From a virus (taxonomy: Duplodnaviria > Caudoviricetes), in the IMG/VR virus record IMGVR_UViG_3300020044_004119, positions 1-60,909 of that record: a stretch of DNA of 60,909 nt. One strand, written 5' to 3'. A model generated the notes under the pieces. That model had not been told where the DNA came from, searched no databases, and worked only from the letters and a program-made list of their open reading frames with translations. The stretch's first letter is position 1, and the number at the start of each line of letters is the position of its first letter. The position numbers and the translations under genes are program-made. Shown here one piece after another: positions 5,341-60,909 of this stretch.

Positions 5341-5360
5341 TGTTGTTCCTTGTTGTTTGT

Positions 5361-23505: not shown

Positions 23506-23515
23506 TCTTTGTATC

Positions 23516-23535
23516 CTCTATTAGGTTCCGACTAC
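23516..23535 (-). promoter_or_regulatory. Putative phage RNAP promoter
   Basis: GTAGTCGGAACCTAATAGAG. Confidence 0.7.
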
Positions 23536-23718
23536 GGGTTCAAAGGTGTATTGGGTTTTACCTTGTAGTTGACAATTAATATGATAGATATACATATCTT
23601 CAACGTTTGCCTCAGAGTCATAGTAAGCTTTGTATTCTTCAAAAGCTTCTTGTGGTGTGTCACCAAGCATCATGTTTCCAGCACCATTATCACTGTCTGA
23701 GCAGAGGTATTTAATCAT
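23521..23718 (-). CDS. Hypothetical protein
   Basis: Coupled small ORF. Confidence 0.6.
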   Translation of the reverse strand: MIKYLCSDSDNGAGNMMLGDTPQEAFEEYKAYYDSEANVEDMYIYHINCQLQGKTQYTFEPVVGT

Positions 23719-24918: not shown

Positions 24919-25025
24919 GGTTATGTTCTGTTGTTAGTGGTGGGTTTGTAGTGCTGAGATACACAGGTCTATAAGATATCTTTAAAGATATATTATTAAT
25001 ATATCCACCGGGGAGGCAGATATAT

Positions 25026-25043
25026 CTAATAGGTACCGGCTAA
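25026..25043 (-). promoter_or_regulatory. Putative phage RNAP promoter preceding an AT-rich palindromic tract
   Basis: TTAGCCGGTACCTATTAG. Confidence 0.6.
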
Positions 25044-27039: not shown

Positions 27040-27126
27040 ATGAATACCCTTGAGTTATGGTTGGTTAGTAGGCGAAAGCACCTACCCATAGAACACTCTG
27101 AAAAATGTTCTACAGGTATCTACCTA

Positions 27127-27921: not shown

Positions 27922-28005
27922 GGTGTTATCCTTGGTTGACTGTGAGTTGAATGGACGGATTGTCCCCGTAGAATACTCGGTGAATATTCTACAGGTACAG
28001 TACGG

Positions 28006-28806: not shown

Positions 28807-28862
28807 TATACTCTCCCAAAAACAGTAATCCAAAGTATACTCTTCCAATAAGTAATCCAAAG
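28807..28862. repeat. Two imperfect tandem ~28-bp repeats
   Basis: TATACTCTCCCAAAAACAGTAATCCAAAG / TATACTCTTCCAATAAGTAATCCAAAG. Confidence 0.8.
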
Positions 28863-28881
28863 TAGTCGGTTCCTAATAGGG
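28862..28881 (+). promoter_or_regulatory. Putative phage RNAP promoter at the head of the late arm
   Basis: GTAGTCGGTTCCTAATAGGG. Confidence 0.75.
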
Positions 28882-28906
28882 AATATATTTTCTACTAAGG
28901 ACACAA

Positions 28907-36230: not shown

Positions 36231-36249
36231 TCGGTAAGTAATACCTAAT

Positions 36250-36286
36250 AAAGGGGATGGGAGAAATCCTGTCCCTTTTTTATTTT
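36250..36286 (+). terminator. Intrinsic terminator after capsid gene
   Basis: AAGGGGATGGGA-GAAA-TCCTGTCCCTTT-TTTT. Confidence 0.85.
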
Positions 36287-36297
36287 AAGGAAACACA

Positions 36298-37765: not shown

Positions 37766-39781
37766 ATGGCTTACGAACAAAAACCAGGCGTTACTGGTAA
37801 TACCTCCTACGGTGGTGAATACAATAACTTAGATACCGTAGATGCTCTTCAATATGACATTACTGCTGCTAACGCCGCCGCACAATCTTTGTTATCCGCT
37901 ACTGCTGCTGCTGCAAGTGCTGCTGCTGCTTTAGTAAGTGAAAATAATGCAGATACTTCAGAAGCTAATGCACTGACTTCTGCTAATAACGCAGATACTT
38001 CAGAAGCTAACGCGCTGACCTCCGCTAATAACGCTGCTGCAAGTGCTTCCGCTGCTTTAGTTAGCGCTAATAATGCAGATGTCTCAGAAGCTAATGCTTT
38101 GACTTCTGCTAATAACTCTGCAACCTCTGCTGCAGCTGCTTTAGTAAGCGAAAATAATGCTTCGACTTCTGCCAGTGTAGCAAACTCACAAGCAAATATT
38201 GCAACAACTCAAGCGGGCATTTCAACTACAAAAGCTGCAGAAGCTTCCGCAAGTGCTGCTGCTGCTTTGATTAGTGCTAACAACGCAGATATCTCAGCAG
38301 CTAATGCAGATACTTCAGAAGCTAATGCACTAGCATCTGCTAATGCTGCTGCATCTAGCGCAAACTCTGCCAATAACTACGCAACAAGTGCTTCTAATAG
38401 CGCATCCGCTGCAGCTACAAGCGAGACTAATGCACTGACCTCTGCTAATAATGCAGATACCTCAGAAGCTAATGCTTTACTATACTCAAACAACGCAGCT
38501 TCAAGTGCATCGGCTTCACAAACATCCGCAAACAACGCAGCCAACAGCGCCACTTCTGCGGCTAACTCAGCCACTGCTAGTGCTGCTAGCGCCGCTGAAG
38601 CAGCTGCAACTTTGGCAAATAAACTAGATAAAGCAAATAACTTATCTGAGTTAACAAATACCACTACTGCAAGAACCAATTTAGGTTTAGGAAGTTCAGC
38701 TACGCTAGACGCGGGTACAGCACTAGGTGTTGCTACACTAGATGCTGGTGGTACAGTGCCTTTATCCCAAATTCCCGCTTCCATTCAAGGTGGTGTATCC
38801 TACCAAGGATCTTGGAATGCATCAACTAATAGCCCAATTATTGTCTCAAGTGTTGGAGTTAAAGGTCATTACTACGTAGTATCAGTAGCTGGTAGTACCT
38901 CTATTAATGGTATCAGCGATTGGGTGCAGGGCGACTGGATTATCTTTAACGGGTTGGTCTGGGAACAGATTGATAACTCAGATATTGTTGCTTCAGTTAA
39001 TGGATATACAGGTGTAGTAAACCTTACATACACAGATGTAGGTGCAGCCTCTGCTGCCCAAGGCGCTAAAGCGGATACTGCAGTACAACCTAATACAGAC
39101 ACCACTTTAGACGATTTAACTGTAACGAGTTTACAGATCCAGGGTGGTATTGCTGATACTGGCGGATTGATTACTTGGAATACAGGTGATGGAACAGCTA
39201 ACCTTACACTTAAAGGTGGTAATGTAACATTACAATTAGGTCAAGAGGAAGTACAGAGAGTTTACAATAATACAGGGAGCACCCTTATTGACGGTCAAGT
39301 GGTGTATATTACAGGTGCTCAGGGTAATAGACTTACAGTTGCTTTAGCACAAGGTAATGCCGAATCTACTAGCTCTAAAACATTAGGTGTAGTTACTGAA
39401 ACTATATTGAATGGTGCTGAAGGCTTTATTACCATCTCGGGTTTAGTTCGTAACTTAGATACTTCTGCTATTCCCGAAGGTACCGCTATCTGGTTATCTC
39501 CAACTGTACCCGGTGGATACACTACAACAAAGCCTGTTGCACCACAACACTTAGTTCAAGTTGGTTGGGTAGTAAGGTCACATGCGACTGTTGGTTGTAT
39601 CTATGTAAGAGTTGCTAATGGTTATGAGATGGATGAGCTACATGATGTCTTAATTACGAGTAAAGCAACAGGGCATATCTTAGTATACAACTCCACACTA
39701 GGTGTATGGGAAAATAAATTAGGAACCAGTTTGTATGATGTTGCAGGTACAGGTATTGCAATGAGTATTGCTTTGGGTTAA
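37766..39781 (+). CDS. Tail fibre protein with Ala/Ser/Asn-rich repeats
   Basis: Repeated NNADTSEANALTSA; KANNLSEL..ARTNLGLG; YQGSWNASTN; VASVNGYTGVV. Confidence 0.8.
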   Translation: MAYEQKPGVTGNTSYGGEYNNLDTVDALQYDITAANAAAQSLLSATAAAASAAAALVSENNADTSEANALTSANNADTSEANALTSANNAAASASAALVSANNADVSEANALTSANNSATSAAAALVSENNASTSASVANSQANIATTQAGISTTKAAEASASAAAALISANNADISAANADTSEANALASANAAASSANSANNYATSASNSASAAATSETNALTSANNADTSEANALLYSNNAASSASASQTSANNAANSATSAANSATASAASAAEAAATLANKLDKANNLSELTNTTTARTNLGLGSSATLDAGTALGVATLDAGGTVPLSQIPASIQGGVSYQGSWNASTNSPIIVSSVGVKGHYYVVSVAGSTSINGISDWVQGDWIIFNGLVWEQIDNSDIVASVNGYTGVVNLTYTDVGAASAAQGAKADTAVQPNTDTTLDDLTVTSLQIQGGIADTGGLITWNTGDGTANLTLKGGNVTLQLGQEEVQRVYNNTGSTLIDGQVVYITGAQGNRLTVALAQGNAESTSSKTLGVVTETILNGAEGFITISGLVRNLDTSAIPEGTAIWLSPTVPGGYTTTKPVAPQHLVQVGWVVRSHATVGCIYVRVANGYEMDELHDVLITSKATGHILVYNSTLGVWENKLGTSLYDVAGTGIAMSIALG

Positions 39782-39797
39782 ATATAAAGGAAAATAA

Positions 39798-40124
39798 ATG
39801 GCAAACACATTTAAAAATTATGTACTACCTAACGTAGGTACATCTGCAACTACCGTCTTAACTGGCGCAACTGGTGCTCAAACAACTATTATTGGTATGA
39901 CATGCGCCAATACAACTGCAATTAACGTCACGGTTTCTGTACTACTTACCAGTGGCGGTAGCACTGTGTATCTGGTAAAAAACGCTACAGTATTACCCGG
40001 TGGTGCTTTGGTGCCTGTTGGTGGTGATCAAAAAGTAGTGGTGTCTGCAGGGAATACTTTACAAGTACAGTCTTCTGCAGCCAGTTCTTTGGATGTATGT
40101 CTTAGCGTATTGGAGATTACATAA
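39798..40124 (+). CDS. Tail-associated small structural protein
   Basis: MANTFKN...VLEIT in the tail fibre cluster. Confidence 0.7.
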   Translation: MANTFKNYVLPNVGTSATTVLTGATGAQTTIIGMTCANTTAINVTVSVLLTSGGSTVYLVKNATVLPGGALVPVGGDQKVVVSAGNTLQVQSSAASSLDVCLSVLEIT

Positions 40125-41260
40125 TGGGAATGATTGGTAATGCACCTTATTTAGGTATTGTTAACGGTGGTAATATTGCTGATGGTAGTATTACCGCCAG
40201 TGATATGGCTAATCGTGGTAACGAGTTTGGGTACCGCAACCGCATCATCAACGGTGACATGCGGATTGACCAGAGGAATAATGGGGCGAGTGTGACGCCG
40301 GCAGCCACGGGGTACACATATTCCGTTGATCGTTGGAGTACATACTGCACCGCCATTGGGAAATTTAGCTTTCAACAAAACGCTGGTGCTGTAGTCCCGC
40401 CAACTGGATTCCAGAAATACCTTGGCTTTACCTCACTTGCGGCAACTTCAGTTGGAGCAAGTGACCTCTACGCTTTCAAGCAAGCCATCGAGGGATTGAA
40501 TTCTGCTGATTTGAATTTTGGCTCTGTCAGCGCGCCCCCAATTACCATTTCTTTTTGGGTGCGCTCGTCTCTGACTGGCACATTCGGAGGGTCGTTAAAC
40601 AACGGGGGAAATACCCGATGCTACCCGTTCACATACACAATCAGCTCGGCAAATACATGGGAGCAAAAGACAATCACGGTTGTCGGTGACACCACTGGAG
40701 CATGGGAAACAAACACATCCACAGGGGTTCAGTTGTTTTTTGGCCTCGGGGTGGGGTCTTCTTCGCAAGGAACCGCGAACACTTGGCAGACCAGCGTAGG
40801 AGGCGTGTTCGGCCCGGCAGGCGCAACCTCAGTAGTCGGCACAAGCGGAGCCACCTTCTACATCACCGGAGTCCAACTGGAAGCAGGTACTGTTGCAACC
40901 CCGTTTGAGCGCAGGGACTACGGACGTGAGTTGATGATGTGTCAGCGGTATTACGCCAAGACTTTTACCCCTGAAACGGCCCCTGCTCAAAACGCAGGAA
41001 ACAACGGGGCTATTGGTTTTATTTCACAAGCTCCGCAGCCATGGGATGCCATGTGGAAATTCCCGGTTGAGATGAGGGCGCAGCCAACTATTATAACATA
41101 CTCCACTAACGCCGCATCATCAAACTGGTCAACAAACACATACACGCCAACAGCCAGTACTGTCGCATTAGGAACAGGAGTGTTAATCCTTCGAGCGAGT
41201 GGTATTGGCGCTGGGGGGTATGGTTTCACCATTCATATCACGGCCAACTCGGAGCTATAA
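40124..41260 (+). CDS. Receptor-binding/tail fibre protein, copy 1
   Basis: RNRIINGDMRIDQR...ITGVQLEAG..ATPFERR...CQRYY. Confidence 0.75.
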   Translation: MGMIGNAPYLGIVNGGNIADGSITASDMANRGNEFGYRNRIINGDMRIDQRNNGASVTPAATGYTYSVDRWSTYCTAIGKFSFQQNAGAVVPPTGFQKYLGFTSLAATSVGASDLYAFKQAIEGLNSADLNFGSVSAPPITISFWVRSSLTGTFGGSLNNGGNTRCYPFTYTISSANTWEQKTITVVGDTTGAWETNTSTGVQLFFGLGVGSSSQGTANTWQTSVGGVFGPAGATSVVGTSGATFYITGVQLEAGTVATPFERRDYGRELMMCQRYYAKTFTPETAPAQNAGNNGAIGFISQAPQPWDAMWKFPVEMRAQPTIITYSTNAASSNWSTNTYTPTASTVALGTGVLILRASGIGAGGYGFTIHITANSEL

Positions 41261-42190: not shown

Positions 42191-42363
42191 CCTCACTATA
42201 CGAACGCATCATCGCCCTGTACCCTGAACTCACAGACCGTGACTTCATGACCGTCATCCGCCTCCAGAATGACTCTGATGGCAAAGGTGATTTCATTGCT
42301 GCATGGGAGCACCCGGTGTTTCCTAGACCAACACCAGAACAACTTGAAGGAGCAACACAATGA
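42187..42363 (+). CDS. Small XkdW-like partner protein (58 aa)
   Basis: Manual ORF ...LQNDSDGKGDFIAAWEHPVFPRPTPEQL; ATGA overlaps at both ends. Confidence 0.7.
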   Translation: MTSLYERIIALYPELTDRDFMTVIRLQNDSDGKGDFIAAWEHPVFPRPTPEQLEGATQ

Positions 42364-43370
42364 CACGCTCAAGAGAATTAGCGGAACTAGCTTCTGCATA
42401 TGACAGCGGGAACTCTTTAGGCTTCCGCAACCGCATCATCAACGGTGAAATGCGGATTGACCAGCGAAATGCTGGGGCGAGTGTGACTGTTAATACAGGC
42501 GGAGCGTTTTACGCCGTAGATAGGTTTCGAATTAGCGCGGTCGCTTCTGCTGGTGTGTTCACAGGGCAGCGAGTTACAGACGCGCCTGCCGAATTTAATT
42601 CTTCCATGAAGGTCACCGTAACCACGGCAGACGCATCCCTTGCGGCCTCCGATGCCTATTACTGCCTGCAAGATATTGAAGGAAACAACGTAGCCGACTT
42701 TAAGTTGGGTACTGCAAACGCCGTCACGTTTACACTTTCATTTTGGGTCAAGTCCAGTTTAACAGGGACGTTCGGCGCATCCTTCTCAAACAATGATGCA
42801 ACTCGGTCTTACCCGTTTAGCTACACGGTCAATGCAGCCAACACATGGGAAAAGAAAACGGTAACGGTAGCTGGCGACACAACAGGCACTTGGGACACAG
42901 GAACAGGGCGTGGTCTTCGGGTCATTTTCAGCTTGGGTGTGGGGTCTGATTTCACAGGAACCGCTAACCAGTGGAACGGTGCTTTTGATCTTGCTCCTGC
43001 TGGTGCGGTTAATGTTATGGCGACCAATGCCGCAACATGGCAGATCACAGGCGTACAGCTTGAAGCAGGCAGCGTAGCAACCCCGTTTGAGCGCAGGGAC
43101 TATGGGCGTGAGCTACAAATGTGTCAACGGTATTACGAAGCTGGTAATGCGAAATGGTATGTACCAAACTCAGGGGCTACTAATATGTTTGCCACTGTTT
43201 CCTACAAGGTAAATAAACGAACATACCCAGTCGTTGCATTTAACAGCACAGGTATTGTTGGTGGTTATCACGCAATGACTACCGTTGAAACCAACTACAC
43301 GGATTCTTTTGCTGGACAGACTCCGGGTGATGAACTGAACTTTGGTTGGACCTCTTCCGCAGAACTTTAA
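42360..43370 (+). CDS. Receptor-binding/tail fibre protein, copy 2
   Basis: Clear paralog of 40124-41260. Confidence 0.75.
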   Translation: MTRSRELAELASAYDSGNSLGFRNRIINGEMRIDQRNAGASVTVNTGGAFYAVDRFRISAVASAGVFTGQRVTDAPAEFNSSMKVTVTTADASLAASDAYYCLQDIEGNNVADFKLGTANAVTFTLSFWVKSSLTGTFGASFSNNDATRSYPFSYTVNAANTWEKKTVTVAGDTTGTWDTGTGRGLRVIFSLGVGSDFTGTANQWNGAFDLAPAGAVNVMATNAATWQITGVQLEAGSVATPFERRDYGRELQMCQRYYEAGNAKWYVPNSGATNMFATVSYKVNKRTYPVVAFNSTGIVGGYHAMTTVETNYTDSFAGQTPGDELNFGWTSSAEL

Positions 43371-44121: not shown

Positions 44122-44525
44122 TAGCGGATGTACTACTAGGTTTTGGTGGAAAACTTTTAGACAAGTTCTTCCCAGATCCTATCCAAAAAGCAGAAGCGCA
44201 AGCTAAGCTTATTGAATTAGCGCAGTCAGGTGAACTAGCTAAGATGGCTAATGAGACTGACTTATACAAGACAGAACAAAATAACTTGACAGCTCGTCTT
44301 CAGGCAGATACCGCTACAGACAGCTGGCTACCTCGTAATATCCGACCACTAACCCTAGTTTATATTTTGGTAGCATATCTTTTACTTGCTCTTCTGGATG
44401 CAGGTACTTTAGACATCGCTGATTCATTTATTGAACTACTAGGTCAATGGGGTATGCTTGTTATGTCTTTTTACTTCGGTGGAAGGACACTAGAGAAAAT
44501 TATGGAAATTAAGAACCGACCCTAA
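44118..44525 (+). CDS. Holin-like membrane protein (3TM holin family)
   Basis: DSWLPRNIRP, two C-terminal TM helices, FYFGGRTLEK. Confidence 0.7.
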   Translation: MIADVLLGFGGKLLDKFFPDPIQKAEAQAKLIELAQSGELAKMANETDLYKTEQNNLTARLQADTATDSWLPRNIRPLTLVYILVAYLLLALLDAGTLDIADSFIELLGQWGMLVMSFYFGGRTLEKIMEIKNRP

Positions 44526-44541
44526 TCGGTACCTAATAGAG
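44522..44541 (+). promoter_or_regulatory. Putative phage RNAP promoter (phoH/tail/ejection block)
   Basis: CTAATCGGTACCTAATAGAG. Confidence 0.7.
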
Positions 44542-44563
44542 ATTAACAAATAAAGGACTAACG

Positions 44564-45247
44564 TTGAAACGCAATACCAGACAACGTAAAGAGAAGTTCG
44601 TTCAAGCTGAACGCTCATTTTACATCCAGCCTAAAACTGAAAATCAAAGATTACTCTTAGATGCTATTCAAGAATTTCCTATCACAGTAACACTAGGTGC
44701 TGCAGGTGTAGGTAAAACTTACTGTGCTGCAAGTAAGGTTGCTCAATTGTACTTGACAGGTCAATATGATCACATTATTCTTACAAGAAGTAACGTACCT
44801 ACAGGACGTTCTCTAGGTTTTTTTCCTGGAAATGTCAATGAGAAGCTAACACCTTGGTTGTTACCACTTATCTCTGTATTAGAGAAACAGTTGGGTAAAC
44901 CTAAGTATGAATATATTTTAGAAAAAGATATTCTCCAACTACAACCACTAGAGACTATTCGTGGTCGTTCTTTTGAAAATAGTTTAGTACTGGTAGATGA
45001 ATGTCAGAACCTGACAATTGAAGAACTAAAAGCTATCACAACCCGACTAGGTGAGAATTCTAAAATGATTCTCATGGGTGATGCTACTCAATCAGACATT
45101 GATAACGGTTCTAATATTATCAAATTCTGTAAGATCTGTGAGAAGCATAACATTGAGATTCCTATTGTGAGATTCACAGTAGATGATATTGTGCGTTCAG
45201 ATATTGTCGGTCAGTTAGTAAGAGCGTTTATTAAAGAGAAAATCTAA
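44564..45247 (+). CDS. phoH: PhoH-like ATPase
   Basis: GAAGVGKT, LGFFPG, RGRSF, DECQN, TRLG, GD..QSD, DIVRS. Confidence 0.93.
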   Translation: MKRNTRQRKEKFVQAERSFYIQPKTENQRLLLDAIQEFPITVTLGAAGVGKTYCAASKVAQLYLTGQYDHIILTRSNVPTGRSLGFFPGNVNEKLTPWLLPLISVLEKQLGKPKYEYILEKDILQLQPLETIRGRSFENSLVLVDECQNLTIEELKAITTRLGENSKMILMGDATQSDIDNGSNIIKFCKICEKHNIEIPIVRFTVDDIVRSDIVGQLVRAFIKEKI

Positions 45248-46788: not shown

Positions 46789-48108
46789 ATGATTGCACCT
46801 CCTTACACGGATAACCCTGACCTAGACGCTTTCCTGTATAACATTTACTTAAATGGTACAGATAACTCAGGTGTCAGTGGTTTAAATCCAAACACAACAA
46901 CAGGCGAGATAACTGATTCCGAAGGTAATGTTGCAGGATACCTATACCAGTTTATTCATGTGAAGTATGCTGATAGTAATACTGGATTGAATATCTCGGA
47001 TACCCAAACAGGTAAAAGTTATTATGGTATTCATAATAGTAGTGTACCAACTGAATCTACAAATCCTGCAGACTATACTTGGTATGAAGTTGTAGGTACT
47101 TTTGGTACTACAAAGTCTTTATATTATTATGTACTGGGTGGTAGACAAGTTAAGTTTGATGTTAACACTGATCCTCAAGACTACCATTGGTTGGTAGATA
47201 CAGGTGTTGTTATTAACTTAGACCTGATTGTTCCACCTAAAACAATTACAACTAGTGAGCTTATTGATGCTGCAGTTACTGAAATCAAACTAGCTAATGC
47301 AGCAGTGACCGCTTCTAAGACTAACATTGCGGCTATTAGTAATGCCACAGGGGATCTTGTGGCTAACTCAGTAGGCACAACCCAGATTACGGATAACGCT
47401 ATTACTTCTGAAAAGGTAACTGCTAATGCTATTGTAGCGGGTAAGATAGCTGCTAATGCAGTTACTGCAGTTACTATTGAGGCTAATGCTATTACTGCTG
47501 CTAAGATAGCTGCAGATGCTGTTACTGCAGATAAAATAGCTGCTAACTCTGTTACTGCTGTAAAGATTGCTGCTAATGCAGTTACTGCTGATAAGGTTTT
47601 GGCTAATAGTATTAGTGCAAGTAAAATGGTCACAAATACTATTACAGCTGCTAGTAGTATTATTGCTGATGCTGCTATCACAAACGCTAAGATTTCTGAT
47701 GCTGCTATCACAAATGCCAAAATAAGTAACGCTGCTGTGTCTACCTTATCTATTGCAGGTAATGCTGTTACGGTACCAGTTAGCTCTTTCGCTTCCGGAA
47801 ACAGTGCATCTGTTACTTTCACCGTACCTCCTGAAGCTGCAGGTCAACCCGTTTCAATCATTGTTACATGGTATTATGTACAAATCTCTTGGTTCAGAGG
47901 TTATATCTATCGAGATGGTTCTTTAATTTTTAACAGATTGATGTCTAGATCTTTTGGTGGTGTAAACCCTTTTATGCCTATCACAGCAACCTTCATTGAT
48001 TATCCACCTGTAGGTACTCATACCTATAGCTTAGGCTCATCTTATGATGACGGTAATACAGTTGTCCCTGAGGCGACAGCTTTATACGCTATACTTTCAA
48101 AAAGATAA
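46789..48108 (+). CDS. Tail fibre/spike protein with AVTADKIAAN repeats
   Basis: HVKYADS and STNPADYTW motifs plus 10-aa repeats. Confidence 0.7.
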   Translation: MIAPPYTDNPDLDAFLYNIYLNGTDNSGVSGLNPNTTTGEITDSEGNVAGYLYQFIHVKYADSNTGLNISDTQTGKSYYGIHNSSVPTESTNPADYTWYEVVGTFGTTKSLYYYVLGGRQVKFDVNTDPQDYHWLVDTGVVINLDLIVPPKTITTSELIDAAVTEIKLANAAVTASKTNIAAISNATGDLVANSVGTTQITDNAITSEKVTANAIVAGKIAANAVTAVTIEANAITAAKIAADAVTADKIAANSVTAVKIAANAVTADKVLANSISASKMVTNTITAASSIIADAAITNAKISDAAITNAKISNAAVSTLSIAGNAVTVPVSSFASGNSASVTFTVPPEAAGQPVSIIVTWYYVQISWFRGYIYRDGSLIFNRLMSRSFGGVNPFMPITATFIDYPPVGTHTYSLGSSYDDGNTVVPEATALYAILSKR

Positions 48109-50162: not shown

Positions 50163-52745
50163 ATGGGGCCACTTGGTATTAGTGCTAAACAGCACAGAGA
50201 ATATCTTAAGCTACAATCTCAGGAACAAAGAGAGAAGGCTAAGATGGAACAAGACGAAAGTCGTAAACAACAACTACATGAAATTAAGCTTCAAGAAGCT
50301 GCTGCTAAGGCTAGCCAAGGTATTGGTCACAAAGAAGATCTCCATGCATTCAAGTTAAAAGAGCTAAGCTCACCCTTAGGTAAAGCACCTAAGATGAACA
50401 AACAAAAACTAGGCATTCCTACGCAGAATCCTTTGGCGGGTACTGAGATGTTTAAACAGGGACAGCATAAGTTATATGCACAAGGTACTGATACCGTTCC
50501 TGCTATGCTTACTCCCGGTGAAGCTGTTATTCCTGCACCAGCTGCTCAGAACCCTGATAATAAAGAAGTTATTAAGGAAATGATTGAAGAGGGTCGTGAG
50601 AAGAATAATATTTCTGATATCCCTCAAAATAATTCTGTAAAGCACTATGCAGACGGTACCGAGGGTGTAAGCTTGTTTGATAAGACTCTTAATTTTATTG
50701 CTGGTCAAAAACCTGAAGTTTTACCTGTAGCAGCGCCTGTAGTCATTGAACCGCCTAAAGTAGACCCTGCCGAATTTTTCCGTAGAACATCTTATGCAGA
50801 AGCTGGAAATGATCCTTATGCTAAACAAACACAACCAGGTCAAACAGCCGCCGGTTTAACAGGAACTACTGCAGGTACTTTTAATTTATTCCAGAAGAAA
50901 TACCCTGAATTACGTAATGTTGAATTTGGAACTAAAGAATACTTTGATCCTAAATTCCAAGAAAAATTATCTAATCTGCATGTACAAGATCGTATGCCTC
51001 AAATTACAAACAAAGGCTTACCTGTAGACTACAATACATTGTATGCAGCTGGCTTCGGGCCTAATGGTATTAAAGCTTATGCAGGTAAAGATGATGAACC
51101 TCTAAGTAAATACTTTACAAAAGAAGAACTTAAAAATAACAAATATTTTGGCAATACTGTTGGTGAGTATAAATCCTTTGTTAATAATAAAATGACCAAA
51201 GCAGAGCAACAGTCAGCTAAGTATGCACCTGTAGAGGCAGCTAAAGAAATTCCCGGTGGTGGCTTTGCTACTAACGCTGGTGGTGCTGCATTTGGTAATC
51301 CAAATATTACTCGTGAAGCTGCTTTGTCTGTGCCAAGACAACAAGCTATTGCCCGTGGTGAGTATGTACCTATTGTAGACGCTACTCAAACAACTCCTGC
51401 TATGAAAGAGAAGTACCCACAAGGTATCCCTATGACCCCTACTCAAGTAGCTCAGTCTAGGCCTGTAGCAGAGGTACCTGTATCTGAAGCAGAACCAGCA
51501 CCTAGTTTACTGGAAACAAAACCTCAGGAAGCCAATAAGACTATTGCTGAGGTATCCCAAAGCAATGCGGATATTATTAAAGGCTTTATTAATGATCCTG
51601 GGTTTAATCAGATTAAAGACCCTGAAGAAAAGAAGTCATGGTTAGAAAATGCTATTTCCTCTGTGTATGGTCCAACAGGTGTATTTAGTAATTCTGAATT
51701 AGCTCGGTTTGCTGTTGTTGCTGCTGGTGGTTTATTAACTGGTGGTTCTGTAGGCGGTTCTTTAAAGTATGCTGGCTTAGACGCGCTTAAATCTGCCGAT
51801 GCAAGACGTACCCAACAAGGTGCTCGTGCCGCTGAGGAATTAAAGAATACTCGTGAATTAACTGAACGATTAGACAGCGACTATAGAACCGCATTAGGTG
51901 AGAATGTTCCTGCAAATGTAAGAGAAAAAGCAGTTGTGTTATATCAAGATGCTAAAACACCTGAACAAAAGAGAGCTATTATCCAATTACTAAAAATGAA
52001 CAAGTCTACCGAAGATACTACGGGTGCAGGTAAACCCGGTAATGTAAGCCAAGGTTTCTTTGATGGTAAACCAATTAATTTCCGTAATCAAGCAGGTAAT
52101 GTTCAAAGGGTTAATGCAAAAGGTGAATGGGAAAATATCCCCCCTGCTGAACTAAAACGCTTTGAGAACAAAGAGCAATACGATACTAATCGTAAACAAA
52201 TGCTTGACTCTACCGTAAATAGAATTACTCCTTATTTAAGAAAACTTAATGCTGGTAACAAAGATTACAATGCAAAAGATGATGCTGATGGTATTGCAGA
52301 AGCCTTTGCTTTAATTAAAGAAGACCTTGGCCCTAACATTTCTGCAACATCATTTGCTAAAATGTCTGAGAATACTATTCGTTCAGCTACTGAAGCTGCT
52401 AAAGCTAGTGGTACTAAACTAACTGAAGAGGGTATTCGTAAACAATTCTTTGGCAATGCTGTTCTTGAAAGTAAGATGGTCACTGGCAACAAAGAAATGT
52501 ATATGGCTAAAGATGAGAAAGGTAAATTTGCTTTACCGTCTGCACCATACCAAACTGCTTTAGGTTCTGCTATGGAAGTATATAAGAAACAAGGTATTGA
52601 TTTAGGTGAAGCTAGTAATGCTATTGAAAAGAAGTTTAATAACCTACCTGCTGAAACTAAAAAGAAATTTACACAGATGTCTGCTGGCGCTCCCGGCTCA
52701 ACACCTATGCTATTGTGGCTACAACAAACAGGTGGCGCAAACTAA
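50163..52745 (+). CDS. Putative ejection protein, possible lytic transglycosylase-like domain
   Basis: GTDTVPAMLTPGEAV; AEAGNDPYAK...TAAGL. Confidence 0.55.
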   Translation: MGPLGISAKQHREYLKLQSQEQREKAKMEQDESRKQQLHEIKLQEAAAKASQGIGHKEDLHAFKLKELSSPLGKAPKMNKQKLGIPTQNPLAGTEMFKQGQHKLYAQGTDTVPAMLTPGEAVIPAPAAQNPDNKEVIKEMIEEGREKNNISDIPQNNSVKHYADGTEGVSLFDKTLNFIAGQKPEVLPVAAPVVIEPPKVDPAEFFRRTSYAEAGNDPYAKQTQPGQTAAGLTGTTAGTFNLFQKKYPELRNVEFGTKEYFDPKFQEKLSNLHVQDRMPQITNKGLPVDYNTLYAAGFGPNGIKAYAGKDDEPLSKYFTKEELKNNKYFGNTVGEYKSFVNNKMTKAEQQSAKYAPVEAAKEIPGGGFATNAGGAAFGNPNITREAALSVPRQQAIARGEYVPIVDATQTTPAMKEKYPQGIPMTPTQVAQSRPVAEVPVSEAEPAPSLLETKPQEANKTIAEVSQSNADIIKGFINDPGFNQIKDPEEKKSWLENAISSVYGPTGVFSNSELARFAVVAAGGLLTGGSVGGSLKYAGLDALKSADARRTQQGARAAEELKNTRELTERLDSDYRTALGENVPANVREKAVVLYQDAKTPEQKRAIIQLLKMNKSTEDTTGAGKPGNVSQGFFDGKPINFRNQAGNVQRVNAKGEWENIPPAELKRFENKEQYDTNRKQMLDSTVNRITPYLRKLNAGNKDYNAKDDADGIAEAFALIKEDLGPNISATSFAKMSENTIRSATEAAKASGTKLTEEGIRKQFFGNAVLESKMVTGNKEMYMAKDEKGKFALPSAPYQTALGSAMEVYKKQGIDLGEASNAIEKKFNNLPAETKKKFTQMSAGAPGSTPMLLWLQQTGGAN

Positions 52746-52761: not shown

Positions 52762-55700
52762 ATGAGTACATTAGAAGAAGACGCAAAGCTATTAGCTGAA
52801 GCTAAAAAGCAGCAACCCGGTTCTCCGGTTACAACTATTGATAATAAACCTGTGGGTTCCCCTGTTAAAGTTATTGATCCTGATACTATTAGGGTTGGTC
52901 AAGAATCATACCGTCTCAGAGGGTTTAATGCCCCGGAAACAGCAAAGCTTCAAGGCGGTATTTTTGTACCTAACCAAGTAGCTGACGATACATCTCAACA
53001 AGATGTTAATACTATTGCTGCTTTAGGTGGTTACACAAACTTAGTAACAGAGGGTCGTGATCCCTATGGCCGTGTACTAGCTAAGCAAACTAACAGAGTG
53101 GGTGAATCCTTAGGTGATACTTTAACTGCATTAGGCTTGCAAAGAACCAACTTACATAGCACAGATGAAGCTGTTCAAAAGAACGCTACACTAGGTGCTA
53201 TTTCAAGAGTACTCCCAGAGCTAACTAATGCTGACCCAATGCTTCGTTATGCTCGTGAAGCAAAAGAAAAGGCTATAGCAGACGCTGGTGGTAATCCTTT
53301 GTATATTCCAAAAGTAAATGTATACGATGAAAAGATGTATGCAGCCTTTAAGAATTCTACAGGTATCCCTGCTGTAAAAGAAGAAGTAGAGGAAGTTGCA
53401 AGGCTAGAAAAGATCTTAAAAGAAGAACAATTAAAACCAGAAACAAGATCTAATCTTCAAGCCAAACTAGAACAGTCCAAGCAACGGTTGTTCTTAGCCG
53501 CAACTACACCTGACGTTGTTGGTGGTACCTTGGTCAGAAACTCTGATCGTAATATTATGAATCAGGCCCATGACCAGTTTGATACTACCTTACACAGAGC
53601 AGCATTGGATATGTATAAAGGTCTAGGCGGTATGCTCCAGTTATCTGGTGATAAAGCCGAATGGGATTGGCTGTCAACTAAGGGCCAAGAAATGGTCAGA
53701 GAAACAAAGATGAAGCAGGATAATCTTGCTGATACTTTAACTTCTTTTAAAGATATACGTACTAACGACCCTTGGACCGCTATCAAAGATACAGCAACTT
53801 ATTCAACAAACCTTATTGCTGGTACACTACCTAGTATGGCTTTGTTACTAGCTTCTACAGCTGCTACTGGTGGTACTAATTTACCAGCACTAGCTGCTTA
53901 TGGTTTGTCTACTGTTCCTCCCGCTTTAATGTACTCAGGTAGCTTTTATGCTGATCAACCTGACGATAAAAAGAATGCTGATTTAGCCTTAGTATTAGGC
54001 CTTGGTTCTGCCGTACTAGATCGTGTTGGTCTTGATGGTATGATGATGAGTGGTAATATTCTTACCAAATCAGGTAGAGAAGAAGTTAGTAATGCTCTAA
54101 TTAAAGCTGGTAAAGCAGCTAATGTACAAGAAGCAATGTCTCTAATTGAGGAAGCTACCAAGCGTGAGTTAGTTGGAATGTCTAAGGCTGGTGCCGCATT
54201 AGCTAAATCACAATACGCTTCCTCTGAAGCTGCTCTCCGTGGTCTGGGTAAATTAACTACTGCTAGTGGTGGAGAAGCTGTTACTGAAAGTGCTCAACAG
54301 TACTTAGAAATGATGGCTACTACTGGTGTGTTTAATACTGACATTCAATATGAGCGTAACTTTTATCAGAACCTTATGGACGCTGCTATTGGTGGTGGTA
54401 CTATGGGTGGCATGTTTAATTCTGTTGGTCAATTAAAAGATGCTGCACAATGGCAATCGTTAAGTAATGCTAAAGAAGTGTATAACCAACAGCTCACAGA
54501 AGAACAAACATTTAACAATGATCAACTTCTAAGAATACGTGAAGGCGACCCAACAGCGTATGCAAGTACAGTTGAAATGGCTCGTGGTGTTAAGTCACAA
54601 CCAACTAATGCACCTGTGCCTGAGTTAAAGTCACTACCAGCATTAGAAGGTGCATGGAATGGTTTCAAGTCTATTATTACTGACCCCGGAAGGTTACTAA
54701 GACAATTATCCGATACCGCTATTCCTAGCATTACTAAAGAAGATGGTACCTTTAAAACAAACTTAGCATATCTAAAATCTATTATTGGTGGTAAAGGTAT
54801 TTTACCCGGTGATAACTATGCAGGTTTTAAACAAAGGTTAATGGGTAGCTGGTCAGGTAACACTGCGGAAGAGCTGGCCAGTAATTTAGGTACCAACGTA
54901 TCTAATGCAAATAGAATGGCTAAAGAGGCTTGGCAAAACTATTGGTCTAAAAATCAAGAGTTACCTCAAACAACTAGAGAAAGTATTGAACTTCAGAACT
55001 GGAAAAACAATTTAGATACTGTTATGAATAAAATGAAAACTGAGGTTTCTCGTTTTAACACAACAAGCTCTGACTTAGATTCAGTTAATCCTTTGTTTGA
55101 GTCTTCTACTATTCACCCTGCTACCTTAAACCGTAACAGAGAAGCCGTTATTGCTACTATGGTGGCTAATGGAAGTACAAGAAGACAAGCTCAAGAAGCC
55201 TTGGAAAATGTTGTTTCAGGTAATCCTGACAAAGCAAAACCAGCAAGAGACTGGATGTCTAAGTATGGTGTATTCAATGATCCTAGGTTGAATAATGTTT
55301 TTGAAACAAACTTATTTAATAGTATGGAAAACCTAAAAGAAAATGTAGCTAATAGAATTGCTCATGAAGTATTCTTAGGAGAAAACGGTAAAGTACTTTC
55401 CAAACTATTAACTCAAGCTAAAGCTAATGGTGAATTTGAATCTGAACAAGAGTACATGGATACTGTAAAGAACGTTCGTGACTGGTATGACATTGTTACA
55501 GGCCAATATAATCCGTTAACTAAGTACCCTAAATTAGAGAAGATGCTTGGTTGGGGTACAACACTGACCATGCTAGCTTCATTAGGTAAAGCTGCTATTA
55601 GTTCTCAGGCTGAAGTAGCTATGTCTACACTAGGTACTAACGGCGATCAAGTTAAAAATCAGTTAGCATTGTACGCTAAAACATTAGCCTCAGAACTACG

Positions 55701-56943
55701 CAGTGATATTAGTGGTGGAGCATCTTTTGCAACTGCTAGTTTAGGTATTGCTTATACCAGGTACAGCCCACACGCAGCTATTAATGTAAAGATTGAGAAG
55801 CTACAACAAGAGTTAGATGAAGCTCAAAACAGCAATGATATCAAAGCTTATGAAAGAATTTCTAAAGAAGTCTCTGACCTCCACAGAAAAGCTTTTGGAA
55901 GGTCATTGTTTGAAACTCTGGGTTACAATGAAACAGGCTATAACACACAAGCTAAGTTTGAATTACCTAACAGTAATATGAAAAAGACTATGCAAGTGTT
56001 TGCATCTATTATTGGTTTAAGAGCTACTACTGATGCTGTCCGTATTGCTTCTTTGGCTTTTGCTTCTGATGCCGTTGTTACTAAACTCCAGTCATTGAGG
56101 GCTATCCCTGCAGAAGATCGCGTAGCAGTATTAACTACAGGTCGTGAATTAGATAATCAACAAGGCCAAGCTTTAAAAGAGCTTCAAGAATCTGGCATGG
56201 ATGTTTTAGGTGTTATAGAAGTATTAGACAATATGGAATCAATGAATCTTGATCCGTATGATTTCTTCTCTGAACAAAACTTAACTAAAGATGGTTACCC
56301 AGCAAACACACAAGCTAAGTTCTTACAGGAAAATATTCTCACAACTATTGGCAATATGACCGATGGTAAAATAGCTAACCCACAAGCTCACAACTTACCT
56401 AAGTACTATAATGACCCCCGATTACGTTTAATTACTGCAATGACTCGATTTGTGGCAGTTTTACATGCAACTGTACTACCAAAGCTATATAGAAACTATA
56501 TTCTAAATGGTGATGCAGGTATGAGATACCAAGCTTTTAGTGTTGTTACTATGTCTATTATGTTCTCATTATTAGCTAACATGCTTAAAGATGAGTTATC
56601 ATATGGCGAAGAAAACCCTTATATTAAAGGTAAAGTAGCTAACGCACAAAGAACACTATATGGTTCTGGTTTGTTAGGTCAGTATGAGAAATTAGTAGAT
56701 GGCGTTATGCCTCTGTATCCACAGAATAAACCTTCTGTATTGGATAATCCTGTAAAATGGTCTTATGAAACATTAAAAGATATTTCACCTGTTGTATCTT
56801 GGGCAGATAAACCTGTTCAAGGTGCATATAAATTAAGTCAAGGAGATACTGCAGGTGGTGTTGCTCAACTAGTTAGAGCCGCACCAGTTGTAGGTAGCTT
56901 CCCTATTGTAGCTAATAAAGCAAAAGAAGCTTTAAAGGAGTAA
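52762..56943 (+). CDS. Large internal virion protein with N-terminal SNase-like domain
   Basis: [20 protein letters not shown]...DPYGRVLA...GL. Confidence 0.65.
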
Positions 56944-56949: not shown

Positions 56950-59900
56950 ATGGCAACATCAACTAAAGTCGCACCTTTAGGTAGCCCAAAATCTGGTCTT
57001 TCATTAGATCAAATGTTAGCATTGCAAGGGCAAACTACAGCGGCTATGGGCACTGTACCATCGCCTGTAGAAGACCCAAGAGCTACTGTACAAGCTACAG
57101 TAGAGCAGTATATGCCAAATCCAATGGCTATTCCACAACCAACAGCACCTTCAGAGGAAGTACTTGCAGCAACACCTACTATCCGGACGTATGAGGACAT
57201 TGCTCGTGCATCTGGATCCCAGTTTGGTGCTCGTCCAGTAGAGGAACCTGTATTAGATACTCAGGGTGACCCTGTTGTAGACCCTATGACTGGTATGCCT
57301 CAGATGAGAGCTATTACACCCGAAGACTATGCCAACCAGCAAGCTATTGAAAAAGCTTCTCAGCTAAACACAATGGAAGCTATGGAGGGTATGTCTCAAG
57401 ACCCTTATGGTCAAGCTAAAGATGCTACTTCTGCATTGTTGTCTGGTAAACAAGACTCAATGTTTAATGCTTCTGCAAGAGACATTTCTAAATCTTCTAT
57501 GGATGAAGATGAGATAGATCGTTATTCAGATAAAACTGCTACAGCACTAGCCACTATTGTATCTCAAACTAATGATGCCTTATTTACTGCTAATGCTCGT
57601 ATTAAAAGTGAAATGAAAGGTGCGGACGGTAGCTCTGTTCTTATTGCTGCTGGTCTTAAAGCTGCTGCTGAAGATGGCTTTAGCTCCCCAGAAGAATTAG
57701 CTGATTTAGGCTTAGTTTTTGGTGTTGCCTTAGCTAAGTCTGCCTCACAAGGTAAAGTAGAAAAGGGTGAGAAAGAAGGTACAGGTAAAGTAATGTCGGA
57801 GTCAGGTGCAACTATTGATGATGCTACCTATATGCTTGACTTTATTAACTCTGTTAAACACTTTGCAACCAACGGTTTAAACCGTATGGGCAAAAAGGTG
57901 TCACCTAAAGCTATTAATGAAATGGCTAAGGCTGTAGCTATGGACGCTATTGACCGTGGTGCTGTAAAAGTATTTCATATTGGTGACCGACCTGTAGTTC
58001 AAATGAGTCCTGCTATTAAAGATATTGCTCGTGACTTACAAATTGCCTCAGAAGCTTTGGTAGGCGACTACGGTCGTAGACGTTCTTCTTCTACACCTAA
58101 CCGTAGTGGTACCTCCTTTGCTGCTAACAGACCACAACTAACTAAACGTTCTATTAAGAAAGGTGATTTAGTTACTACTGCTGCAGAAGCTACTAAGGAC
58201 ATTCTTGGTTCAGTTGGTTTAATGTTTGGTGCTAAGGATATTCAATATAAAGAAATTGAATTAGGCTTAATTATGAGTCCTGAATACCTAGTTAAAGATG
58301 ATCAGGGTAAAGTTAAATTTAGTAACCATTGGGCGGCTAAGCGTTTAGGTGTAAGTGAAAAAGATTTCAATGCAGCTAAAATGAAAACAAAGCCTGAGAA
58401 AGACTTTAATCCTACAGACCCAGATGCTGTCAGACGCTTTGAAGCACAACAAGAATATCAAGCAACAGAGGTTATTAATAACAAACTAAAAACTATTGAG
58501 TTTGATATCAAGAATGCTAAGAATTCTTCCGGTATTCGCTACTCAGAATGGGTACACAGCTTATCTAACCAACGATTCTTCCCTAACAGCTTTGACGTAG
58601 ACTACATGGGTTCCAAGAATGCTACTCGTGATATGTTAGGTTTTGCTGTTAAAGAGTATGTAACTTCAGATATGTTGTTTGACCCACGTACAGTAGATAA
58701 CCTCAAGCAAAAAGCTATTGGTATTCTACATATGTCAGGTGACAAACAGAATGATGCTTTAGAAAAGTTAACTCCTTCTGAGCGAGGTGCTATTGGCACT
58801 ATGCTTAATGCGGTAATTGGTTATTACTCTGCTGTTGAAGGTTCTAATCCTGATATTGTTAAGGAGTCACCTTCTAGTATTGTTTCTAAATATACCGTAT
58901 CTATTGGTGATAAGCTAGCTGAAGCTGGTAGAGACTATAATGCTTTCCTTGCTGACCCAATGAATGCTTCTGATAACATTCAGGAGCTATTAGCAGGTAT
59001 GGAAAAAGGTGAATCTATGGGTTCTAAAAACCTGTGGGATGATATGTTTAATTTAAAGGCTGCTTCGCTTAAACCTGAAACACAACGTAAGCATATCCCA
59101 TTAACTCACCATGCTTTTGACGATGGTAATCAGAACGGTATCTTCTTACAGGCACTATTCTTTGGTAGTCCTGATAATGCTATTCGTCTGGGTACCTTTA
59201 ACCCTTCATTAGATGACATGCGTGAGTACGCAATGAATACCATGATTGCTAATCTGGAAGATAACTTAAAAGATAATGCTGATGCTAACGATGCTTTCAG
59301 AAATTTCTTTAAGGCTATTAAAGATAAGCAGGGTAAAGCTGCAATGGCAAAAGACTTCTTCAAGAAGCCACTAATGCAAAATGCTTATGGTAAAGATGCT
59401 AGTATGTTTGGTGATATGATGGTTGAGGTCTTAACTAACGTATACCCAGATGAAGCACAACAATACTTGTTGAACAGCGGTGTTTATAACCGTGATATTG
59501 ATAAAGCATCTACGGCTTTAAGTGATGCGCTAGAGAGTACTCTCAGAGAAGTTATTAATTCTAAATCAACTCAAGTATTAAAAGATATTGGTCGATACAC
59601 TGCTATTCTTAACCAAACAGTTATGATGCCAGGTATTACTGGTGACACTTATGTATTTACACCTGTAGAGGTTATGCCTATTAACAAAGCAAATGATAGT
59701 GGAGAAATTCTACCTATCAAACTTAATGATGGCACAACTGTAATGGTCAAATACAAAGCGTATGAGTCAGATACATTTGTTAATAGTGAAGGTCAAGAAG
59801 TAACTGTAGAGTCAAGTGCTATGGGGTATAGTCCTGCAGCAAGTAAAGGTGCTCAGTTAATTTATAACCAAAGAACTAAGAAGTACGATGTGTTTAACAA

Positions 59901-60744
59901 CGCCATTGGTACAAGCCAATCAAGACAAATGGTGGTTATGCCTATCCAGTCTATTGACGGGGACTTGGTTAAGTCAACAACGCTATCTGTGAATAAAAAT
60001 AGATCAACTCCAGTACCTATTATGTGGGTACACGATTCAGCTATTTCTACTCCCGGTGGTTCATTGTTGTATCGTAATGCTTATAATAATATTTCTATTC
60101 CTAAAGCTATTCCTCAAATTGCTAAGTTTGGAAATCAATTTGCAGCTGTTATTAAAGACAGTGAAGAATCGGTGTTCGATAAAGTAATGGAAAGAGGTCG
60201 TCCAGTAAGTATCGGTGATCAAGGGGACTTCCCTGCACTAGGTTCTTATTTAGATGAGCAGTTTGAAAGAGTACAAGATGACGGTGCTTACAAACAGATC
60301 TTTCTAAAAAGAGCTTATAACAACGAAACAACTTGGTTGAAGTACCAACAGAAGACTAACGCTATTCTTAAAGAAGCTGAAGACAATGGTTGGAAAGCGC
60401 CAAGAAGTATTCCTGATACGGCTAATATGACTGGTGAACAGATCAGGAGACACCTTGCAGTTACGCCAAAACAGTTTAAAAACTTAGTTAACCTTTCCAA
60501 AGAAATGTTAAAGCTAAGTGGCCCTTCAAATAGATTTGATTCTTGGGTACGTAACTTTGCAAGTAACGTCAATGACACTGCCTCTAAGTTAATGACTGCT
60601 GCTAAGAAAGACGGTATTGGTCAGATGACTTATGGCGCTACTGGTGAACGTGCTGGTATTACTAAGTCTAAAGCTATTGCTGAACAAATGGATATTAAAC
60701 GAGACGAAGAGTTCGTAGCTAAATACGAAAAAGCTTTTAAGTAA
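56950..60744 (+). CDS. Second, divergent single-subunit RNA polymerase; putative virion RNAP
   Basis: Motif A FDDGNQNG, motif B KDFFKKPLMQNAYG, PIQSIDG, motif C WVHDSA in canonical order. Confidence 0.8.
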   Translation: MATSTKVAPLGSPKSGLSLDQMLALQGQTTAAMGTVPSPVEDPRATVQATVEQYMPNPMAIPQPTAPSEEVLAATPTIRTYEDIARASGSQFGARPVEEPVLDTQGDPVVDPMTGMPQMRAITPEDYANQQAIEKASQLNTMEAMEGMSQDPYGQAKDATSALLSGKQDSMFNASARDISKSSMDEDEIDRYSDKTATALATIVSQTNDALFTANARIKSEMKGADGSSVLIAAGLKAAAEDGFSSPEELADLGLVFGVALAKSASQGKVEKGEKEGTGKVMSESGATIDDATYMLDFINSVKHFATNGLNRMGKKVSPKAINEMAKAVAMDAIDRGAVKVFHIGDRPVVQMSPAIKDIARDLQIASEALVGDYGRRRSSSTPNRSGTSFAANRPQLTKRSIKKGDLVTTAAEATKDILGSVGLMFGAKDIQYKEIELGLIMSPEYLVKDDQGKVKFSNHWAAKRLGVSEKDFNAAKMKTKPEKDFNPTDPDAVRRFEAQQEYQATEVINNKLKTIEFDIKNAKNSSGIRYSEWVHSLSNQRFFPNSFDVDYMGSKNATRDMLGFAVKEYVTSDMLFDPRTVDNLKQKAIGILHMSGDKQNDALEKLTPSERGAIGTMLNAVIGYYSAVEGSNPDIVKESPSSIVSKYTVSIGDKLAEAGRDYNAFLADPMNASDNIQELLAGMEKGESMGSKNLWDDMFNLKAASLKPETQRKHIPLTHHAFDDGNQNGIFLQALFFGSPDNAIRLGTFNPSLDDMREYAMNTMIANLEDNLKDNADANDAFRNFFKAIKDKQGKAAMAKDFFKKPLMQNAYGKDASMFGDMMVEVLTNVYPDEAQQYLLNSGVYNRDIDKASTALSDALESTLREVINSKSTQVLKDIGRYTAILNQTVMMPGITGDTYVFTPVEVMPINKANDSGEILPIKLNDGTTVMVKYKAYESDTFVNSEGQEVTVESSAMGYSPAASKGAQLIYNQRTKKYDVFNNAIGTSQSRQMVVMPIQSIDGDLVKSTTLSVNKNRSTPVPIMWVHDSAISTPGGSLLYRNAYNNISIPKAIPQIAKFGNQFAAVIKDSEESVFDKVMERGRPVSIGDQGDFPALGSYLDEQFERVQDDGAYKQIFLKRAYNNETTWLKYQQKTNAILKEAEDNGWKAPRSIPDTANMTGEQIRRHLAVTPKQFKNLVNLSKEMLKLSGPSNRFDSWVRNFASNVNDTASKLMTAAKKDGIGQMTYGATGERAGITKSKAIAEQMDIKRDEEFVAKYEKAFK

Positions 60745-60750: not shown

Positions 60751-60796
60751 AAAAACCCCTACTAGGATTATTCCTAATAGGGGTTATTTTTTTTTT
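60751..60796. terminator. Bidirectional terminator where the two arms converge
   Basis: A-run, AACCCCTA.TAGGA..TCCTA.TAGGGGTT, T10 run. Confidence 0.85.
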
Positions 60797-60852: not shown

Positions 60853-60909
60853 GATAAAGCACTATTACTATCAATACCACGCTCAAGGTAAGACTCATAA
60901 TTCTCTCGG
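60853..60909. repeat. 57-bp direct repeat identical to 1-57
   Basis: Exact match. Confidence 0.95.

Follow-up and report, generated by a model that had tools for sequence, protein, structure and literature searches.

To our knowledge, the only single-subunit RNA polymerases (RNAPs) known to be packaged in virions are the ~3500-aa proteins of N4-like phages. In relatives of N4, these virion RNAPs (vRNAPs) have been described as giant three-domain proteins of ~2800-3800 aa, and a survey of N4-like viruses dropped vRNAP-like proteins shorter than 2500 aa (PMC10654107). In N4 itself, gp50, gp51 and gp52 are reported as a conserved ejection operon (PMC13434306). Here we describe P0001, a 1264-aa protein of a marine phage (virus record IMGVR_UViG_3300020044_004119), which we predict to be a compact single-subunit RNAP and which is probably carried in the virion and injected with the DNA, like the N4 enzyme of three times its size. 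The stretch that we analyzed, called the window below, is the whole record of 60,909 nt. It is a complete phage genome in a circular assembly of 60,852 bp; positions 1-57 are identical to 60853-60909, so the assembly is circularly closed (or has a short terminal repeat).

The genes form two arms, which point away from each other at ~28.85 kb and meet again at the ends of the window. The minus-strand arm runs from 28,819 to 188, with small open reading frames (ORFs) in its first ~3.5 kb, followed by a gp2.5-like single-stranded DNA-binding protein, RNA and DNA ligases, a DNA polymerase, an exonuclease, a primase-helicase, a 735-aa T7-like RNAP, a ribonucleotide reductase, and two tRNAs. The plus-strand arm carries the terminase, portal, scaffold, major capsid protein, and tail and fiber genes, and its last three genes, all very large, are those of P0004 (860 aa), P0003 (1393 aa), and P0001. 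The phage would accordingly encode two polymerases of the single-subunit kind, one on each arm, and the conventional one-chain enzyme reported at 5389-7596 by an initial annotation of this sequence is indeed present:

56950-60744, plus strand: P0001, predicted compact RNA polymerase gene, 1264 aa with an ATG start; an ORF, last gene of the virion (late) arm
5389-7596, minus strand: P0002, conventional 735-aa T7-like RNAP near the end of the replication arm (Pfam RNA_pol E 1.3e-56; phrog_414 4.2e-97)

The initial annotation had proposed that P0001 is a hidden polymerase because it holds five short motifs in the order known from T7 RNAP. The ORF and all five motifs are found in the translation where that annotation had placed them:

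58564-58581, plus strand: SNQRFF, S539-F544 (N540, R542), the T/DxxGR equivalent; aligns to DYRGRVYY of the T7-like RNAP profile
59116-59139, plus strand: FDDGNQNG, motif A, F723-G730, with D725 as the predicted catalytic Asp; aligns to IDGSNNG of T7-like RNAP
59350-59391, plus strand: KDFFKKPLMQNAYG, motif B (O-helix), K801-G814 (K801, K805, Y813, G814); paired with T7 motif B by hhalign
59941-59961, plus strand: PIQSIDG, palm motif before motif C, P998-G1004 (Q1000, D1003); aligns to FVHSxDAAH of T7-like RNAP
60025-60039, plus strand: WVHDS, motif C, W1026-S1030, with D1029 as the predicted catalytic Asp; aligns to AVHDSFS of T7-like RNAP

The T7 order holds up, as in a profile alignment with the phage's own T7-like RNAP family every motif has its counterpart, in the same order, along 437 columns. 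The spacing within motif B, from K805 to Y813, is the same as that from K631 to Y639 in T7 RNAP, again as had been claimed. When the family was aligned to the T7 RNAP translation with hhalign, motif B was the only aligned stretch, with K801 paired to R627, K805 to K631, Y813 to Y639, and G814 to G640. The PIQSIDG motif also matches, weakly (E 0.85), the Pol I block PIQGSAADI...VHDE. At SNQRFF, read as the T/DxxGR equivalent, the Arg is invariant in the family, but the Gly is replaced by Gln or His in the clade to which P0001 belongs.

We modeled residues 65-1264 of P0001 with AlphaFold2, using a 68-sequence alignment and no templates, so that model numbering is the residue number minus 64. The model has a predicted local distance difference test score (pLDDT) of 89.9 and a predicted template modeling score (pTM) of 0.88. 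In a Foldseek search of the PDB, 73 matches passed E<=1e-3, with a lowest value of 2e-14, and the matches listed are all T7, yeast or human mitochondrial, or N4 single-subunit RNAPs. With VIA-align, the model superposes on the T7 RNAP elongation complex with Z 23.1 and a root-mean-square deviation of 4.5 over 561 aligned residues, followed by yeast mitochondrial RNAP (Z 22.4), human POLRMT (Z 20.1), and the N4 mini-vRNAP (Z 16.1). The superposition on T7 RNAP spans model positions 3-1163 against T7 residues 9-883, so almost the whole of P0001 is predicted to be RNAP, with the N-terminal domain included. At E<=1e-3, the BFVD library of viral models yielded 53 hits, and those with names are mostly phage RNAPs or pieces of N4-type vRNAPs. 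The right-hand fold on which the initial annotation had depended is therefore predicted over the whole length of the protein.

In model numbering, D725 lies inside the strand 658-662, K805 inside the helix 732-748, and H1028-D1029 at the turn between the strands 960-963 and 966-969. In the model, this placement is the usual setting for motifs A, B, and C. The modeled P0001 has a beta-rich insertion (residues 892-983) after motif B and before motif C; in T7 RNAP, the specificity loop sits between these two motifs.

A word-seeded search of metagenome proteins returned 74 relatives of P0001, mostly 1200-1400 aa in length (full range 776-1405). None of them has a Pfam domain, and those with names are labeled hypothetical except for one odd label. 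From 74 viral-contig loci we built an alignment of 64 rows, consisting of P0001 and 63 ORFs with a minimum length of 1150 aa and a start away from any contig edge, among them the gp33 protein of roseophage CRP-7, with 12 shorter or truncated ORFs left out. All 64 rows keep R542, D725, Q728, K/R805, Y813, Q1000, D1003, and D1029, at identities down to ~21%, and H1028 is kept in 63. A trimmed alignment of 37 rows gives the same invariant set. The aspartates of motifs A and C, whose conservation in homologs had been named as a point to check, are both invariant. At the first motif, distant clades read SSVGR, TNGR, or ANGR, which is the canonical xxGR, while the P0001 clade reads NQR or NHR. Because the motifs are collinear with those of T7-like RNAPs and their key residues are kept in every member of the alignment, they are more than chance resemblances, and the invariance of active-site residues in proteins that share as little as ~21% identity indicates selection on catalysis.

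The same residues bear on the idea that P0001 is a structural ejection protein that has retained an RNAP fold and lost polymerization. Several canonical residues do differ, such as the Gly of T/DxxGR, which is Gln or His in the P0001 clade, and large insertions bring the protein to 1264 aa compared with 883 aa for T7 RNAP, both of which would suit such a history. However, the T7-class metal- and nucleotide-binding residues (both Asp, K/R805, Y813, and R542) do not vary even among the most distant members, and we consider a loss of activity very improbable. The best explanation of the modeled fold and the motifs is that P0001 is a catalytically competent single-subunit DNA-dependent RNAP of the T7/N4 class. 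This class membership is drawn from fold and motifs.

Gene order around the polymerase is kept wherever the contigs allow. The order is giant protein (EJ1), giant protein (EJ2), RNAP, and then a convergent T7-like RNAP. A T7-like RNAP was found downstream on the opposite strand in 63/74 loci, and all 11 misses have a flank of 3.5 kb or less. A homolog of P0003 lies upstream of the RNAP gene in 61/74 loci, and all 13 misses begin at a contig edge. The gap between these two genes ranges from -56 to +51 nt. In the window the two genes share a frame, so a read-through fusion of P0003 and P0001 was considered, but the frame is shared in only 27/61 loci, and in all 61 the polymerase is therefore a separate polypeptide. 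The gap between the P0003 stop and the P0001 start in the window is 6 nt, and the last three late genes are spaced by 6-16 nt. Two elements that flank P0001 were read from the sequence:

56935-56940, plus strand: Shine-Dalgarno AAGGAG, 9 nt before the P0001 ATG and inside the end of the upstream gene
60751-60796, no strand assigned: terminator-like hairpin CCCCTA...TAGGGG with a flanking A-run and T-run, directly after P0001 where the arms converge

A full hidden Markov model (HMM) search of 1.84 billion representative sequences found 354 clusters (50% identity) at E<=1e-3, 314 of them at E<=1e-10. Full-length proteins among the best 150 of the 354 clusters are ~1030-1660 aa long, and none of these is N4-sized. 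A literature search found no description of the P0001 family. We believe that this is a real, unrecognized, widespread, and deeply divergent family of compact polymerases that are probably delivered by the virion.

The case for packaging comes from the position of the gene and from amino acid composition, which P0001 shares with the two giant proteins encoded just upstream:

52762-56943, plus strand: P0003, 1393 aa, all-helical with hydrophobic helices and 0 Cys; putative large ejection/core protein (AlphaFold2 pLDDT 70)
50163-52745, plus strand: P0004, 860 aa, 0 Cys; putative ejection protein with no family hit in Pfam, PHROGs, or NCBIfam

Cysteine is absent from the combined 3517 aa of P0004, P0003, and P0001. 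Across the loci that were fetched, there are 16 cysteines in 89,262 aa of the RNAP family, 4 in 82,579 aa of EJ2, and 5 in 38,670 aa of EJ1, compared with 758 in 45,445 aa of the T7-like RNAPs of the same contigs. The cysteine frequency of the RNAP family (74 ORFs) is thus ~90x below that of the cytoplasmic T7-like enzymes. Against the background of the replication arm, the absence of cysteine from P0001 alone has p ~5e-11. The N4 proteins gp50, gp51, and gp52 and the T7 proteins gp15 and gp16 also have 0 Cys, while T7 RNAP has 12 and P0002 has 11. The paper on phage DEV states that cysteine suppression marks the ejection operon of the Schitoviridae and relates it to passage through the periplasm (PMC11445570). 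For phage StenR_269, a vRNAP has been proposed solely from size, helices, and the absence of cysteine. Based on the gene position, the packing behind cysteine-free giants, and the suppression of cysteine, P0001 is probably packaged in the virion and injected with the DNA.

The same evidence can be set against a second active RNAP that remains cytoplasmic in the producing cell, where it would boost late transcription or prime replication and would not be packaged. The fold and motifs suit any active RNAP, and the late arm has phage-type promoters that need some phage RNAP. But the gene lies at the far end of the late unit, so its product is not needed to start that unit and indeed cannot start it. 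A purely cytoplasmic enzyme also does not explain a near-total avoidance of cysteine over 74 ORFs, given the cysteine counts of T7 RNAP and P0002, and the position of the gene equals that of N4 gp50. We consider a cytoplasmic role unlikely.

A phage-type promoter-like element, TAGTCGGTWCCTAATAGR, recurs in the window. The copies were read from the sequence:

28861-28884, plus strand: promoter-like element AGTAGTCGGTTCCTAATAGGGAAT, where the late arm begins, 23 nt upstream of the terminase gene
44521-44542, plus strand: second copy, upstream of phoH and of the distal virion genes, the last of which is the RNAP gene
2361-2382, minus strand: copy on the replication-arm strand, before the last small genes of that arm
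23515-23536, minus strand: copy at the border of the small early ORFs and the replication genes
~25022-25043, minus strand: variant in the minus arm

The element at 2361-2382 is kept at the matching place and in the same orientation in 17 related loci (~12 distinct sequences), where we estimate a chance expectation of ~0.3. Upstream of TerL the element is kept, as a conserved block, in all 32 distinct rows of an alignment whose input was 33 of 80 fetched loci, chosen for having enough upstream flank. We take the element to resemble the initiation regions of the T7 group. We tentatively assign it to the T7-like RNAP P0002 because this is the better conserved of the two enzymes. As a candidate for a second promoter, CTAATAGGTA has 5 occurrences, but many other 10-mers are equally frequent and it was rejected.

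Two side observations concern single copies of this element. A phoH-like gene (44564-45247, Pfam 1.6e-55) lies among the virion genes and immediately follows a copy of its own. At 36231-36297, immediately downstream of the major capsid gene, a degenerate copy (TACCTAATAAAG) is followed by a GC hairpin and a T-run, an arrangement that recalls the terminator after the T7 capsid gene.

Put together, we think it reasonably likely that P0001 is a competent, divergent RNAP that is packaged, ejected, and transcribes the entering DNA before P0002 takes over. P0001 would be synthesized late, from the transcription unit that also yields the virion proteins, and would enter the capsid together with the two giant proteins without cysteine whose genes lie just upstream. 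At infection, it and both giants would be expelled through the tail and the periplasm. P0001 would then refold in the cytoplasm and transcribe the entering DNA without new protein synthesis, and P0002, once made, would take over from it, using the conserved TAGTCGGTWCCTAATAGR promoters in front of the replication genes and the late arm. In this scheme we infer the packaging, the ejection, the templates used, and the assignment of promoters to polymerases; what the analysis shows is the RNAP fold, the kept active-site motifs and gene order, the suppression of cysteine, and the promoter-like element.

Several results speak against this account. P0001 matches no Pfam family, with nothing at E<=1 beyond DUF1340 at E 0.13, and PF00940 (RNA_pol) is not matched. 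PHROGs and NCBIfam give 0 families each, a phmmer search of the PDB gives 0 hits, and PDB profile searches with two family alignments found no RNAP. Comparing the family profile with the T7-like RNAP profile of the same contigs using hhalign gives a probability of 4.9% (E 0.008), and comparisons with the single sequences of T7 RNAP and the N4 mini-vRNAP are not significant (E 0.15 and 0.16). The remaining proteins of the virion arm are low in cysteine as well (0.43%), and against that background the absence of cysteine from P0001 alone has p ~0.004. The putative identity of P0003 and P0004 as ejection proteins is drawn from position, size, composition, and weak fold hints; for P0003, the top Foldseek hit is a T7 core protein at E 0.036, and none passes E<=1e-3. 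A literature search found no virion proteome of CRP-7 or of any relative. When all intergenic regions were scanned for a second promoter class with k-mers and with one mismatch allowed, only the GGTWCCTAATAG element was obtained. With one phage-type promoter class found, there is no distinct promoter set that can be assigned to the second enzyme. Finally, a perfect TATAAT with a poor -35 precedes the first early gene and is conserved in several subclades, so the host RNAP may contribute to early transcription and an injected enzyme would be less necessary.

These last two points would also suit a P0001 that is packaged and ejected and has a mainly mechanical part, in which it pulls the genome in by transcribing it and anchors the ejectosome, while the host RNAP starts expression from a sigma-70-type promoter. 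RNAPs pull the genomes of both T7 and N4 into the cell by transcription. The N4 vRNAP has been described as staying tethered at the membrane (PMC13434306), which we count in favor of such a part. On the other hand, a scan of the sequence for sigma-70 promoters found 20 sites compared with 32.3 expected from shuffled sequence, and the -35 of the conserved site is poor. Pulling DNA by transcription would still need promoters, and none was identified. We regard a mainly mechanical role as quite unlikely.

The early region itself has two further features. At 28820-28906 on the minus strand there is a tandem repeat, TTTGGATTACT...GAGTATA(A/C)T, which ends in the perfect TATAAT, and similar AT-rich blocks are present in relatives; this repeat may be a host-type early promoter or operator. 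On the early coding strand we also observed a conserved stem-loop, TACCTGTAG-[variable inner stem]-CTAYGGGTA, with window copies at 27085-27118 and 27962-27997 (minus strand). It is found in 8 related loci as well, one of them having two copies. Compensatory changes occur in 5/15 pairs, a tandem U.G/G.U is kept in all rows, and there is no Rfam match. Early hairpins were considered as N4-type hairpin promoters, but on the template strand the conserved U.G/G.U pairs would become A.C mismatches, which makes an RNA element more probable than an N4-type DNA promoter. The stem-loop could be an RNase III-type or a protein-binding RNA element.

In fold comparisons of P0003 with VIA, nothing matched beyond helical hairpins and, at Z 6.0 over 257 aligned residues, the PhiM1 ejectosome, and an attempt to tie the protein to T7 gp16 or to the N-terminal domain of N4 gp50 yielded a moderate model with weak fold matches only. 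Residues 1-193 of P0003 (52762-53340) contain the motifs IDxDT...RxxGxNAPE...DxYGR, which are nearly invariant in the family alignment. They have no Pfam hit and presumably resemble the staphylococcal-nuclease motif set. For P0004, the ESM Atlas points to SLT lytic-transglycosylase clusters (score 0.86), which we treat as a lead only. Near residue 110 of P0004 the block GTDTVPAMLTPGEAVIP is conserved within an otherwise very variable protein.

Elsewhere in the window, the large subunit of the ribonucleotide reductase (3358-5373) has a C-terminal glutaredoxin domain (Pfam 5e-13). Two paralogous tail-fiber genes (40124-41260 and 42360-43370) both match phrog_4492 and share stretches of 80-94 nt at 82-85% identity, with a further repeated stretch after each (41298 and 43414). 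Two tail/fiber genes contain in-frame tandem repeats, at 37895-38505 and 47398-47667, with periods of 21/42 nt and 30 nt, and these encode Ala-/Ser-rich repeats.

The initial annotation named no characterized isolate with this architecture, while allowing that relatives may be described; roseophage CRP-7 (MK613349) is such an isolate. In searches of 50,697 phage records with tblastn, P0001 and one distant family member had no match, and CRP-7 gp33 matched CRP-7 itself only, making CRP-7 the only isolate found with the family. It is also the closest isolate to the window phage by portal (52.5% identity) and by T7-like RNAP (32.3%). CRP-7 gp33 is annotated as hypothetical, and the available text of the CRP-7 paper names only ORF30, the conventional enzyme, as an RNAP. 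A literature search found no later work on the CRP-7 group. Since CRP-7 is in culture, the claim made here is open to direct testing.

If P0001 is what we propose, injected RNAPs would be common among marine podoviruses (354 clusters in public metagenomes) and no peculiarity of N4-like phages, and host-independent early transcription would be much more widespread in the ocean. The protein would be a natural minimal vRNAP for studying the packing of a polymerase, its passage through a tail, and its refolding, and it would provide an unfused state for reasoning about the origin of the N4 giant. Biotechnology draws on a small set of single-subunit RNAPs, to which the family also adds a new, very divergent branch without cysteine. 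It is possible, at a little less than an even chance in our judgment, that the family is a third deeply separate lineage of single-subunit RNAPs, carried as free-standing cysteine-free cargo of a podovirus ejectosome. If so, virion-delivered transcription may have arisen more than once, or alternatively the N4 giant may be a later fusion of a free polymerase with P0003-like membrane-spanning ejection proteins.

Of the described systems, CRP-7 holds the positional equivalent of P0001: its gp33 (1235 aa) is the last gene of the virion arm and is convergent with the T7-like RNAP gene. It is a distant homolog, with a BLASTP match at E 7e-9 over motif C and with motifs A and B aligned, but with only ~24% identity over the aligned stretches. 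CRP-7 gp33, gp34, and gp35 have 0 Cys, compared with 14 in the CRP-7 RNAP.

N4 gp50 is alike in having a single-subunit RNAP fold (Z 16.1 to the mini-vRNAP, ~750 residues aligned) and in its place in the genome. In the late arm of N4, the terminase, portal, and capsid genes are followed by those of gp52, gp51, and finally gp50, which faces the replication arm, and P0001 is likewise last. Neither protein has any cysteine, both phages encode a second, T7-like RNAP, and the 1264 aa of P0001 are close to the 1106 aa of the mini-vRNAP piece. However, there is no detectable sequence similarity between P0001 and gp50: BLASTP against gp50 found no match for P0001, the sole hit being a 33-residue chance match of another window protein, and the hhalign alignment (E 0.16) is off-motif. 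At 3500 aa, gp50 is far longer, and P0001 is without its flanking N- and C-terminal domains. The upstream partners also differ in size, being 860 and 1393 aa here and 150 and 644 aa in N4, as does the make-up of the second polymerase, a single chain of 735 aa here, whereas N4 RNAPII is a two-subunit enzyme.

T7 RNAP is the best structural match of P0001 (Z 23.1, covering T7 residues 9-883), and the two share the order of T/DxxGR and motifs A, B, and C and an identical spacing within motif B. P0001 is ~380 residues longer, has its beta-rich insertion 892-983 at the place of the T7 specificity loop, and is encoded in the virion arm, whereas T7 RNAP is encoded in the early region. The T7 gp14/gp15/gp16 genes and the ejectosome cassettes of podoviruses resemble the end of the late arm in being consecutive genes for large, helical, cysteine-free proteins of the structural arm, but the T7 core cassette has no polymerase, and the matches of P0003 to the T7 and PhiM1 core proteins are below significance. 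P0001 is thus like an N4-type vRNAP by position and composition and like T7 RNAP by fold, and it belongs to neither family by sequence. We would place it as a new variant on the theme of the virion RNAP, compact and free-standing.

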